Below, one piece after another: positions 3,395 through 4,124 of a stretch of 6,041 bases of DNA (position 1 is its first letter; the number at the start of each line of letters is the position of its first letter). Below the pieces are notes generated by a model that worked only from the letters and a program-made list of their open reading frames with translations, did not search any database and had not been told where the DNA came from. The translations under genes were made by a program, and so were the position numbers. The DNA comes from a virus (Duplodnaviria > Heunggongvirae > Uroviricota > Caudoviricetes). The stretch lies in the IMG/VR virus record IMGVR_UViG_2667527895_000005. One strand, written 5' to 3'.

Positions 3395-3481
3395 TGCCTG
3401 AAAAACGGTACAGGACGTTAAACACGCTGGTGGTCAGATGAGTTTGCAGATGTGATGACATATGGTTATTATTCTGCCTCC

Positions 3482-3557
3482 GGCCCTTTAGCTCAGTTNN
3501 NNNNNNNNNNNNNNNNNNNNNNNNNNNNNNNNNNNNNNNNNNNNNNNNNNNNNNNNN
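3482..3557 (+). tRNA. tRNA gene, 5' part only visible (identity undetermined; remainder masked)
   Basis: Seen: GGCCCTTTAGCTCAGTT at 3482-3498 fits a canonical tRNA 5' end (7-nt acceptor arm GGCCCTT, T8, A9, D-stem GCTC, D-loop AGTT...). The anticodon is inside the N run, so identity cannot be read; the end coordinate is estimated from a typical 76-nt length. Established knowledge: 21/933W-like phages carry tRNA genes (ileZ-argN-argO) between Q and S. Confidence 0.5.
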
Positions 3558-3905
3558 NNNNNNNNNNNNNNNNNNNNNNNNNNNNNNNNNNNNNNNNNNN
3601 NNNNNNNNNNNNNNNNNNNNNNNNNNNNNNNNNNNNNNNNNNNNNNNNNNNNNNNNNNNNNNNNNNNNNNNNNNNNNNNNNNNNNNNNNNNNNNNNNNNN
3701 NNNNNNNNNNNNNNNNNNNNNNNNNNNNNNNNNNNNNNNNNNNNNNNNNNNNNNNNNNNNNNNNNNNNNNNNNNNNNNNNNNNNNNNNNNNNNNNNNNNN
3801 NNNNNNNNNNNNNNNNNNNNNNNNNNNNNNNNNNNNNNNNNNNNNNNNNNNNNNNNNNNNNNNNNNNNNNNNNNNNNNNNNNNNNNNNNNNNNNNNNNNN
3901 NNNNN
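3499..3905. other. Masked or unsequenced stretch (407 N)
   Basis: Seen: continuous run of n. The ORF-track proteins made of X across this interval are artefacts. A run of 7 T at 3907-3913 immediately after the gap suggests a terminator whose stem lies in the masked part. Confidence 0.99.
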
Positions 3906-4124
3906 CTTTTTTTGCAAAATTGCTGTGCAGAAATACTAACCTTCGGGCGTGCGATCATTCATAAGCACTCTGCTTTTATTCCGATTAACTGTGGGTGGTT
4001 TGTTGGATAGAGTGCTTTCCTTACTGTATATATCGTTTCGCCCGCTTTTGCGTTTTTTTCTTTTCAAATCCCTTTCATTTCTCAGTGTAAAACTACGCCA
4101 TCCGTTATTTGCGGAGGTGAGGCT

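Follow-up and report, generated by a model that had tools for sequence, protein, structure and literature searches.

A structured, conserved trailer behind the tRNA array in the late region of a defective Shigella flexneri lambdoid prophage

Clusters of tRNA genes located behind Q have been described in phage 21, 933W, the Stx2 phages (ileZ-argN-argO), SfI, Sf6 and ST64T. In phage 21 the annotated order is Q - pR' - tR' - tRNA-Asn - tRNA-Thr - S21. RNAs from the trailers of tRNA operons can be released by tRNA processing and can act in trans. The Q-to-S moron site is also where the anti-sRNAs AgvB, AsxR and EcOnc03 were found (Tree et al. 2014), and PasA and PasC are prophage sRNAs of the same site (Pearl Mizrahi 2021; Zhu, Shabalina and Storz 2026 preprint).

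The stretch of DNA analysed here, called the window (6,041 nt), represents the late part of a defective lambdoid prophage from Shigella flexneri. It agrees in every base with five S. flexneri genomes over positions 1799-3498 (1,700 nt) and 3906-6041 (2,136 nt). The Shigella copy is truncated by IS at both ends, and its insulating terminator is eroded to 3 bp. We propose, with a probability of roughly 0.6, that the interval between Q and the holin gene is a self-contained tRNA operon at the lambdoid moron site, whose trailer would serve as a cis-acting processing and stability module.

Organization of the late region and content of the masked interval

All genes lie on one strand, in the order Q, tR', tRNA start (3482), holin, endolysin (5039) and Rz (5569). 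This is the annotated phage 21 order, with the tRNA cluster placed between Q/pR'-tR' and the holin-endolysin-spanin cassette; coordinates are collected in Table 1. In the flank-identical relatives the Q product carries the domain PF06530 Phage_antitermQ, and PGAP labels it 'antiterminator Q family protein'. The tR'-like terminator (fold dG -17.0 kcal/mol) was missing from the output of a simple pattern scan; its position matches that of the annotated tR' in phage 21 and in HK639.

Table 1. Features of the late region, in window coordinates.
Feature	Position	Strand	Basis and details
Q antiterminator gene, start of late region	2902..3282	+	ORF; 126-aa product
tR'-like intrinsic terminator	3369..3393	+	9-bp stem AAACCCGCC/GGCGGGUUU, loop UCCG, then U-run
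Putative sigma-70-like promoter of the tRNA array	3444..3472	+	scan hit; activity presumed
tRNA-Ile(CAU), readable first 17 nt, ileX/ileZ type	3482..3498	+	flank-identical relatives
N-mask, 407 N	3499..3905	+	content predicted from relatives (367 nt in every one)
Hairpin 2, loop and 3' arm	3906..3963	+	folds; 3' arm GCGATCATTCATA at 3951-3963
Hairpin 3, conserved RNA motif	3963..4017	+	dG -20.2 kcal/mol
Eroded intrinsic terminator	4040..4064	+	GCCCGC-TTTT-GCG-TTTTTTTCTTTT, 3 bp left
Holin leader, phage 21-type	4073..4124	+	fold dG -16.2
Class II holin, S21 type, dual start	4125..4340	+	ORF; PF04971 Phage_holin_2_1

An earlier note, made from the letters of the window, had placed the Q-S interval among the tRNA/moron sites of the phage 21/933W type and had read GGCCCTTTAGCTCAGTT as a canonical tRNA 5' end. 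Both assignments were borne out. The first agrees with the phage 21 annotation, with the Stx2 tRNA-Ile/Arg genes and with the presence of a tRNA cluster in every relative. The second agrees with the flank-identical relatives, in which these nucleotides start a tRNA-Ile(CAU) called by ARAGORN, scored at 70.5 bits by the Rfam tRNA model and annotated as tRNA-Ile by PGAP. ARAGORN found no tRNA in the window itself, because just 17 nt of one tRNA are readable there; cloverleaf, anticodon and encoded CCA were established on the flank-identical relatives.

The 407 masked bases reported by the same note are indeed present as a run of N, but they do not give the real length, which is 367 nt in every relative, including the five flank-identical S. 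flexneri genomes. A spacing of 407 nt was found in 0/125 relatives and in none of the flank-identical Shigella genomes, and when three collections (viral, genome and metagenome) were scanned with gapped patterns for spacings of 385-420 nt, there was no match. Since no relative has the 407-nt spacing, the length of the N-run is uninformative; the mask is 40 nt longer than the interval of any relative, and a lineage-specific insertion may lie there.

The 367-nt interval is identical across L001, L002, L006, L007, L135, L136, L137, L138, L139, L140 and L142; in L135 (CP034931.1, 2745949-2754363, reversed) it occupies locus positions 1971-2337. In the relatives it comprises tRNA-Ile(CAU), tRNA-Arg(UCU), tRNA-Thr(UGU) and tRNA-Gly(UCC) plus 73 nt; in the flank-identical ones the four tRNAs score 56-70 bits with the Rfam tRNA model, and ARAGORN and PGAP concur. 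Judged by these sequences, the masked stretch almost certainly holds the same ordinary, already annotated set of four tRNA genes. The earlier note had allowed for an ordinary, already described tRNA cluster as an outcome that would refute it, and for the masked part this is what the relatives' annotated tRNAs give: the cluster is of the known phage 21/933W type, is annotated in RefSeq and contains nothing new. Besides the tRNAs, hairpin 1 (GTCTTTCAGTC...GACTGAAAGAC) and the 5' arm of hairpin 2 (TATGAATGATCGC), described below, should lie under the mask.

The tRNA-Gly is 100% identical to host glyT, and the tRNA-Thr is identical to thrU except for 2 D-loop bases. The codons cognate to the array, AUA, AGA, ACA and GGA, are over-used in the prophage's own genes: in the nine ORFs of the window the shares are 16% for ATA among Ile codons, 12% for AGA (Arg), 25% for GGA (Gly) and 19% for ACA (Thr), against host shares, taken from established codon tables, of ~7, ~4, ~11 and ~13%, respectively. 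The endolysin gene alone has 7 ATA codons. The cluster fits the established picture of phage tRNAs supplying rare codons, and the SfI paper (PMC3636060) reports the same reasoning for ACA.

A putative promoter upstream of the array went unremarked in the earlier note. It consists of a -35 box TTGCAG (3444-3449), a 17-nt spacer and a -10 box TATTAT (3467-3472), with 9 nt to the tRNA +1. The layout TTGCAx-17-TATTAT-9 nt recurs in at least 8 upstream sequences that share nothing else, and from this conservation we infer that the array has its own, putative, sigma-70-like promoter. In HK639 there is no space for a separate tRNA promoter.

Three hairpins behind tRNA-Gly kept by compensatory substitutions

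Three hairpins are formed by the ~190 nt that follow tRNA-Gly. They begin 6 nt past the CCA of this tRNA, and behind them, in relatives and in HK639, comes an intrinsic terminator. A 219-nt stretch of this region is present, unannotated, in 523/5,426 complete E. coli genomes (about 10%), and no Rfam match of the trailer to RtT or to any other family was obtained.

The T-run at the start of the readable part (c3906, then t3907-3913) had been taken for the tail of a terminator whose stem is masked. This had to be abandoned: in unmasked relatives the preceding 25 nt (GACGTTTAAGTTATGAATGATCGCC) form no GC-rich hairpin, a pattern scan of these relatives listed no terminator at the T-run, and in the fold the run together with GCA pairs with UGCAGAAA (3926-3933), inside hairpin 2. 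The block 3908-3922 is almost invariant (pi 0.0017), and the arms of hairpin 2 differ, the 5' arm being variable and the 3' arm invariant.

For positions 3914-4124 the AT-richness noted before is real (GC 42.2% versus 49.8% for the whole window). The statement that no ORF there exceeds a few codons is incorrect as a count, since a 59-codon GTG ORF (3949-4128, +) and a 43-codon TTG ORF (3936-4067, -) exist mechanically, but it is right in substance: relatives have frame-breaking indels of 1, 2 and 5 nt inside both ORFs, which are therefore best read as non-coding. Of the suggested promoter, leader or small RNA, the leader was recovered in the last ~50 nt, which belong to the holin, and hairpin 3 is a structured RNA; no conserved promoter was found in this stretch. 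The candidates for a promoter of S, TTGGAT...TATATA and TTGCAA...TACTAA, are poor matches whose -10 parts vary among relatives, and the TATATA at ~4027-4032 is not kept.

Compensatory changes back the trailer hairpins across diverged relatives, including phage HK639. In alignment A2, which covers the whole trailer, 94.8% of cells are paired, compared with 38-45% when the partners are slid. Nine pairs change on both sides, giving 77 cells against 30 +/- 5 in shuffled alignments, and 0/500 shuffles reach 77; in helices 3 and 4, the part of A2 that supports hairpin 2, 4 pairs vary on both sides. Most of the covariation in hairpins 1 and 2 comes from a single split between two clades and represents few independent events. 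Alignment A1, the close E. coli/Shigella family, contains zero compensatory changes and is uninformative for covariation because its members are 97% identical.

The strand was discriminated only by the asymmetry between G-U and A-C: the structures are paired in 94.8% of cells on the + strand and in 84.2% on the - strand, with 221 G-U cells versus 49 A-C cells, a comparison that favours + over - in that one member's + strand was the source of the structures. Folding z-scores of the trailer were -4.0 and -3.5; compared between strands they were good on both (-3.5 and -4.1) and offered no choice. These results show that the three trailer hairpins are kept by compensatory substitutions, in the strand with the same sense as the tRNAs and the lysis genes.

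Diversity is low in the same elements. Values of pi were 0.013 for hairpin 1 and 0.011 for hairpin 3 outside the search core, while the linker plus terminator reached 0.09-0.13 and the third codon positions of the holin 0.125.

Hairpin 3 is composed of a basal stem (AAGCACUCUG/UAGAGUGCUU), a 5' internal loop and a G-U-rich upper stem, and includes an invariant 14-mer, GGGTGGTTTGTTGG, at 3993-4006. In its own alignment, A3, 91.6% of cells are paired versus 35-49% when slid; six pairs change on both sides, a value reached by 0/500 shuffles, and the basal stem occurs in at least 8 different complementary versions. A covariance model of hairpin 3 matches the window at 3950-4028 with 83.5 bits. Among loci that share only the 14-mer, the model matched 17/100 and gave none in 83/100. 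Diverged phages, HK639 among them, and contigs of uncultured viruses carry hairpin 3 too. It was also found alone in other phage late leaders, without any nearby tRNA; its orientation relative to the downstream holin/endolysin genes is constant across independent contexts. It has no Rfam family. Hairpin 3 is a real, conserved, folded RNA motif that recurs before the lysis genes of many related phages, and this conserved hairpin after a tRNA array has apparently been undescribed so far.

The trailer could in principle be non-functional debris, that is, decayed tRNA copies or palindromes hitch-hiking with the array, with the T-run as a plain tRNA terminator. The inner part of hairpin 1 (CUGCGAUGAUGGGAAAUCCCGG) is by eye like the variable-loop/T-arm of tRNA-Gly (GCUGAUGAUGCGGGUUCGAUUCCCGC), the arrays of relatives include plainly decaying tRNAs, and covariation is lacking among close relatives. 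This origin is nevertheless highly improbable and already disfavoured, given the compensatory changes in three helices across clades, the complementary versions of the hairpin 3 basal stem, a trailer diversity ~10-fold below that of synonymous sites, and the occurrence of hairpin 3 away from tRNAs. Moreover, the Rfam tRNA model gave no match on the trailer at E<=1, and no hairpin stands directly upstream of the T-run.

Terminator, holin leader and possible roles of the trailer

The terminator that follows the hairpins exists in relatives as a series of alleles: GCGGGC (-13.7 kcal/mol), GCGGGT (-11.5), GCGGTT (-6.6) and GCGTTT (-3.3). The window carries the weakest of them, and strong versions are found in relatives; in HK639 the annotated terminator lies ~15 nt past its hairpin 3. 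Because the decaying terminator stands between a presumably constitutive tRNA promoter and the holin gene, its graded alleles are a natural series in which the leakiness of lysis genes in lysogens could be studied.

The holin leader and the start of the holin gene are of the phage 21 type. The ORF begins MKSMDK, with a dual start at Met1 (4125) and Met4 (4134), for which the phage 21 annotation gives S21-71/S21-68. In the leader, UUUCAU (4073-4078) can pair with AUGAAA (4125-4130), and a hairpin UCCGU...GCGGA (4101-4115) overlaps the beginning of the SD GGAGGTGA (4113-4120). Window positions 4079-4140 are 82.5% identical to phage 21 over 63 nt, and pi is 0.002-0.009 over 4088-4132.

In the reading we prefer, the sigma-70-type promoter 9 nt 5' of tRNA-Ile would drive the array in the lysogen, independently of Q. 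The lysogenic transcript would pass the structured trailer and end at the terminator, ~60 nt before the holin gene; as it would stop there, a constitutive tRNA promoter would leave the lysis genes unexpressed. Upon induction, Q-modified polymerase from pR' would read past tR' and on through the array, the trailer and the terminator. The tRNAs would then be cut off by RNase P and RNase E, and the hairpins would remain at the 5' end of the lysis mRNA, and likewise at the 3' end of the short lysogenic transcript. Hairpin 3 is a putative recognition site for a factor, because one of its strands is invariant; a role as stabiliser leaves its 14 invariant nt unexplained.

An invariant sequence amid a covarying element is typical of a seed, and a different, rather doubtful reading builds on this: by analogy with PasA, which is processed from a longer RNA, hairpin 3, linker and terminator could constitute a trans-acting Hfq-type sRNA of ~100 nt cut from the tRNA transcript, with the invariant G/U-rich GGGUGGUUUGUUGG as seed or protein-binding site. 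The corresponding layout, a stem-loop, an A/U-rich variable linker and a U-tailed terminator, is present in the E. coli type, in the diverged type, in L314, in L289 and in HK639, and prophage sRNAs are known from the Q-to-S moron site (Tree 2014; Pas sRNAs). The G/U-rich strand, however, is base-paired in the predicted structure, L235 has hairpin 3 without a following terminator, L232 has a copy behind the lysis cassette, and the window's terminator is down to 3 bp. Only the hairpin 3 relative of L314 matched the Rfam isrK model, over its full length (23.1 bits, E 0.002-0.005), far under the gathering score of 50 and with a different fold of the hairpin 3 apex. No isrK was detected in the window at E<=10 or by BLAST, and L001 gave no match; hairpin 3 was thus not filed as isrK, the score being below gathering and the window without a match.

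It is also conceivable, though unlikely, that the trailer acts in cis, within the late transcript, on holin expression or on the timing of lysis, controlling for instance access to the dual-start region of S, or binding a protein, from phage or host, by which read-through into the lysis genes is controlled. Consistent with this, hairpin 3 lies 5' of, and sense to, holin/endolysin cassettes with several unrelated holin types, the neighbouring S leader shows high conservation and a fold that covers the SD and Met1, and the graded terminator alleles resemble a tuning of read-through. Against it, the distance from hairpin 3 to the holin gene ranges from ~110 nt to >800 nt, with terminators and even ORFs between; the downstream holins are mutually unrelated, so that a shared base-pairing target in S is unlikely; and phage 21 has the same S leader without the trailer.

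The processing/stability module proposed above concerns the trailer as a whole. For hairpin 3 itself we suggest, tentatively and as a model, that it may be a widespread new RNA motif of lambdoid late leaders acting by sequence-specific recognition through the invariant GGGUGGUUUGUUGG. If this were true, hairpin 3 could be a GcvB-like sRNA whose G/U-rich strand acts on C/A-rich targets or, alternatively, be bound by a factor of host or phage origin that determines how strongly or when the lysis genes are expressed, and the trailer of hairpins 1-2-3 would correspond, in a prophage, to the regulatory tRNA 3'ETS RNAs. Since the Q-holin region hosts Shiga toxin genes and virulence-modulating sRNAs, a new RNA there would bear on the insulation, processing and timing of the late transcript.

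Comparison with known prophage and tRNA-operon RNAs

The published sequences of AgvB, AsxR and EcOnc03 gave no BLAST match at E<=1 to the L001 Q-S interval plus window 3906-4140, and the conserved ~42-nt 3' region of this family (GTATCTCATGC..TTGCCCGAACCCAYTCGGGC) was likewise not matched. PasA and PasC, extracted from NC_011601.1 (E2348/69), shared just chance words of 8-14 nt. The likeness of a PasB probe to the loop of hairpin 1 was put down to chance because PasB sits between tail genes. IpeX of DLP12 was rejected as well: it is unannotated at essD, nmpC is on the other strand, and the match is limited to the SD/start region of essD. An HK022-type put antiterminator RNA was considered as a candidate for the hairpins because HK639 carries the element; put sites are found in early operons.

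Nothing specific on ileZ/argN/argO or on prophage 3'ETS RNAs was found in the literature. AgvB, AsxR, EcOnc03, PasA, PasC and StxS share the niche of the trailer, between the Q-dependent promoter and the holin gene, and PasA is intergenic and directly 5' of a class II holin gene. Transcription of PasA, PasC and the anti-sRNAs runs antisense to the late operon or converges on it, whereas the structure of the trailer is better supported on the sense strand. IsrK (RF01394), an Hfq-binding RNA of Salmonella Gifsy-1, resembles the trailer as a prophage hairpin plus terminator in a late-regulatory neighbourhood.

The array occupies the same position as the tRNA genes of phage 21 and of the other post-Q clusters, and like these it provides tRNAs for codons that the host uses rarely and that phage genes are enriched in. 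The tRNA-Ile/Arg genes of Stx2 phages align over their full length with the Ile-Arg pair of the array, at ~83% identity. The array differs from the lambdoid clusters in having four tRNAs, the second half of which duplicates host thrU and glyT. It has its own putative promoter, while tR' of phage 21 is directly adjacent to the first tRNA; and it is followed by the ~190-nt structured trailer, from which phage 21 is free in spite of the shared S leader, whose Met1-Lys-Ser-Met4 dual start and SD-proximal hairpin are ordinary.

Closest in design are the 3'ETS-leuZ sponge and the RtT RNA of the tyrT operon, structured non-coding 3' spacers that end at the operon terminator. The trailer likewise lies between the last tRNA and the operon terminator, the position of a 3'ETS RNA. 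It differs from the E. coli 3'ETS RNAs in being borne by a prophage and in that its hairpin 3 also occurs away from tRNAs.

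Gene content and the tRNA genes inferred under the mask

The window's closest relatives were chromosomes of Shigella flexneri, along with a few E. coli genomes; all its listed genes lie on the + strand (see table). Both ends are repeated mobile-element junctions: nucleotides 1-73 are a junction sequence found elsewhere in the same genomes, which cuts into the DnaC-like gene, and at nucleotides 5971-6041 the end of an IS600-type element (IS3 family) truncates Rz. The window therefore belongs to a defective lambdoid prophage. Phage 21 has nothing between holin and endolysin, whereas the window has a 209-codon ORF; YdfR/DUF1327 genes occupy this spot in other relatives. 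After Rz, an E. coli relative (L001, 6272-6806) carries a ParD/ParE toxin-antitoxin pair and a KilA-N gene, in place of which the Shigella lineage has IS600.

Features of the 6,041-nt window
Feature	Position	Strand	Remark
DnaC-like gene	to 972	+	
DnaB-like helicase gene	969-2360	+	
Small ORF, then ninH	between DnaB-like helicase and Q genes	+	
Q antiterminator gene	2902-3282	+	
Non-coding interval with 407-N mask	mask 3499-3905	+	
Hairpin 1	wholly in masked part	+	fold
Hairpin 2	5' arm in masked part; 3' arm 3951-3963	+	fold
Hairpin 3	3963-4017	+	fold
Class II holin gene	4125-4340	+	
209-codon ORF	4344-4973	+	no Pfam hit on record
Endolysin gene	5039-5572	+	
Rz gene, cut short	ends 5973	+	

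Five S. flexneri genomes (CP034931.1, NEDR01000002.1, CP007037.1, CP004057.1 and UDWA01000156.1) match window 1799-3498 and the whole of 3906-6041 at every base. In all five the masked interval is 367 nt long, with the same sequence as in E. coli CFSAN029787, and contains the rest of tRNA-Ile(CAU), tRNA-Arg(UCU), tRNA-Thr(UGU), tRNA-Gly(UCC) and a 73 nt spacer, in this order. The tRNA genes are 1-3 nt apart and CCA is encoded in each. The 17 readable bases at 3482-3498, which the earlier note took for a tRNA start, begin tRNA-Ile(CAU) in the relatives. The unmasking that it proposed as a check, performed here on the flank-identical relatives, revealed an ordinary cluster for which RefSeq annotation already exists. 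Downstream tRNA genes close to Q have been documented in phage 21, SfI, Sf6, ST64T and Stx phages (PMC3636060; phage 21 annotation).

The 407 nt of the mask do not correspond to a real length, since every relative has 367 nt. No sequence with the 385-420-nt spacing that the mask would need was found in viral, genome or metagenome collections, and the first tRNA lies 465-468 nt from the downstream landmark in 125/125 relatives, without exception, where the window would give 508. The N-run was therefore judged to be 40 nt too long. The excess at 3499-3905 could be due to mask padding, a gap estimate or a private insertion.

The tRNA-Gly is 100% identical to host glyT. The tRNA-Thr differs from host thrU at two D-loop bases; that of the sister arrays is identical to thrU. 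The Ile-Arg pair is homologous to the tRNA-Ile/tRNA-Arg pair of Stx2 phages (~83% identity end to end; 386 phage records). The window's own genes are enriched in codons cognate to the four tRNAs: ATA makes up 16% of Ile codons, AGA 12% of Arg codons, GGA 25% of Gly codons and ACA 19% of Thr codons. The endolysin gene has the highest ATA density (7 in 177 codons) and, judged from this density, would be the gene with the greatest dependence on the prophage tRNA-Ile(CAU).

The array's second tRNA is built on a single homologous scaffold, with a lineage-dependent anticodon loop (L001 3695-3771, L003 2195-2271, and loci L149, L181, L204 and L166). The anticodon is Arg UCU in the window's lineage, but other members of the E. 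coli type have Lys UUU; diverged arrays have a shortened loop, in which ARAGORN reads Phe AAA, Leu UAA, 'Stop' UUA or an undetermined anticodon. The discriminator base also varies (G, T, A). This variation could be anticodon switching or decay; a tie to anticodon-nuclease defence is speculation. S. flexneri CP182556.1 (L008, 3996-5100) and E. coli CP178302.1 (L009, 6079-7200) each have the Ile-Arg-Thr-Gly array a second time, there with 1-2 nt deleted from tRNA-Thr. This second copy is followed by a wholly different ~700-nt spacer with several terminator-like hairpins and then by another holin, IS-interrupted.

A tR'-like terminator, with a 9-bp hairpin (dG -17) and a U-run, is located at 3369-3393 (L001 3504-3528). 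Downstream from it, TTGCAG (3444-3449) and TATTAT (3467-3472) are separated by a 17-nt spacer, 9 nt before tRNA-Ile. This TTGCAx-17-TATTAT-9 nt geometry is conserved across at least eight upstream sequence families with no other relationship to each other, which is good comparative evidence for a putative sigma-70 promoter. Because of its position downstream from the tR'-like terminator, the array may be expressible in the lysogen without Q. In S. flexneri WACK01000005.1 (L134), a group II intron-type reverse transcriptase/maturase gene (RVT_1, GIIM; 1-1869) lies immediately upstream, and identity with the window's lineage resumes just past the tR' terminator (junction at about window 3397). 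The junction is consistent with introns of a kind that inserts behind intrinsic terminators.

A structured RNA trailer behind the tRNA array

The trailer, the ~190 nt following tRNA-Gly, folds into three consecutive hairpins from the tRNA-Gly CCA to ~60 nt before the holin gene, and this fold is unusually stable (z = -4.0). No covariation was detected within the close family (44 haplotypes, 97% identity). A scan with the 15-mer of the hairpin 1 loop yielded ~26 homologues at 72-79% identity, including phage HK639. A structure predicted solely from the E. coli-type sequence was then scored on 27 sequences: 94.8% of cells pair, against 38-45% with partners slid. Both sides have changed in nine pairs, in 77 cells versus 30 +/- 5 after shuffling (0/500 shuffles reached the observed value), although the compensations in hairpins 1 and 2 come mostly from one split between two clades. 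Pairing was 94.8% on the + strand and 84.2% on the - strand; G-U cells numbered 221 and A-C cells 49. The trailer is thus a structured RNA of the sense strand, supported by covariation.

Nucleotide diversity (pi) was 0.013 in hairpin 1, 0.011 in hairpin 3 outside the search core and 0.002 in the block around the T-run, versus 0.09-0.13 in the linker plus terminator and 0.125 at holin third codon positions. In hairpin 2 the 3' arm is invariant and the 5' arm variable. The loop of hairpin 1 (CUGCGAUGAUGGGAAAUCCCGG, L001 3945-3968, in the masked part) resembles by eye the variable-loop/T-arm segment of the adjacent tRNA-Gly, which suggests an origin by partial tRNA duplication.

The earlier note placed the T-run (3907-3913) and the start of the holin gene (4125) correctly. 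Its reading of the T-run as a terminator tail was rejected: the fold pairs the T-run inside a larger hairpin, no GC-rich hairpin precedes it in unmasked relatives, and none was listed by a terminator pattern scanner, whose negatives need caution since it returned 0 sites despite the textbook hairpin at 3369-3393. The stretch 3914-4124 is AT-rich as described (GC 42% vs 50% for the whole window). It is not strictly ORF-free, as 59- and 43-codon mechanical ORFs exist, but relatives have 1-, 2- and 5-nt indels inside.

Hairpin 3, the terminator and the holin leader

A scan with an invariant 14-mer located hairpin 3 in further contexts lacking hairpins 1 and 2 or tRNAs. Among these are sites that follow lambda-type Q genes, sites behind tR'-like terminators and sites that precede several unrelated holin/endolysin cassettes; the orientation is always sense. 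The basal stem occurs in at least eight complementary versions (e.g. GCACTCT/AGAGTGC, GCATCTC/GAGGTGC, GCACTCC/GGAGTGC, GCACACT/AGTGTGC and GCATGCA/TGCATGC) and GGGTGGTTTGTTGG is invariant. Over a set of 22 diverse sequences the share of paired cells is 91.6% (35-49% when slid), and six pairs show changes on both sides (0/500 shuffles reached the observed value). A covariance model built from these 22 sequences scored 83.5 bits at window 3950-4028, a sequence type included in the training set. Of 100 loci sharing only the 14-mer, 17 matched at E<=7e-9 and 83 gave nothing at E<=0.01, so the model is specific. It found no copies in phage 21, DLP12, the PasA locus or the PasC locus. Hairpin 3 is a motif that stands on its own.

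A good intrinsic terminator, GCCCGC-TTTT-GCGGGC-TTTTCTTTT (dG -13.7), follows hairpin 3 in relatives. Its 3' arm forms a series of constant length, GCGGGC (48 loci), GCGGGT (about 30), GCGGTT (about 20) and GCGTTT (about 18), as if by progressive erosion from G/C to T or by tuning. Of these alleles the window carries the weakest, GCGTTT (3 bp, dG -3.3), and its 4040-4064 is a decayed insulator terminator. At this place one or two strong terminators occur in diverged relatives, and the depositors of the HK639 sequence annotated one ~15 nt past hairpin 3.

The last ~50 nt (4073-4124) are a phage 21-type holin leader with an SD-proximal hairpin and a Met1/Met4 dual start; phage 21 is 82.5% identical to window 4079-4140. 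The suggestion of a promoter, leader or small RNA in the non-coding stretch was thus borne out in part: the readable DNA holds this S21 leader, already known, and a conserved RNA hairpin that is real and apparently undescribed.

Proposed role and comparison with known RNAs

Four tRNA genes in the flank-identical relatives, the conserved promoter geometry and the terminator after the trailer in relatives are observed. In a lysogen, a transcript from the tRNA promoter would comprise the tRNAs, the trailer and the terminator; it would provide tRNAs for rare codons, with the holin gene shielded by the terminator. Once the prophage is induced, Q-modified polymerase would read through the entire interval, and the lysis mRNA, after tRNA processing, would keep the hairpins at its 5' end. 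In the reading that we favour, the trailer would act in cis as a module for processing and stability, and hairpin 3 would be a recognition site for a partner.

The main rival is that hairpin 3, linker and terminator form a predicted trans-acting sRNA. The moron site, between Q/tR' and the holin gene, is known to encode sRNAs, the anti-sRNAs AgvB and AsxR and the Pas sRNAs PasA and PasC, with PasA immediately upstream of a class II holin. No sequence similarity to the trailer was found in these four, which are transcribed from the opposite strand. Rfam 15 gave no match for the trailer in L001, one diverged member or the window; the sole hint was isrK, for one hairpin 3 relative, sub-threshold at 23.1 bits against a gathering score of 50. 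For the trailer, the nearest functional analogue, by position, is the 3' external spacer RNA of tRNA operons.
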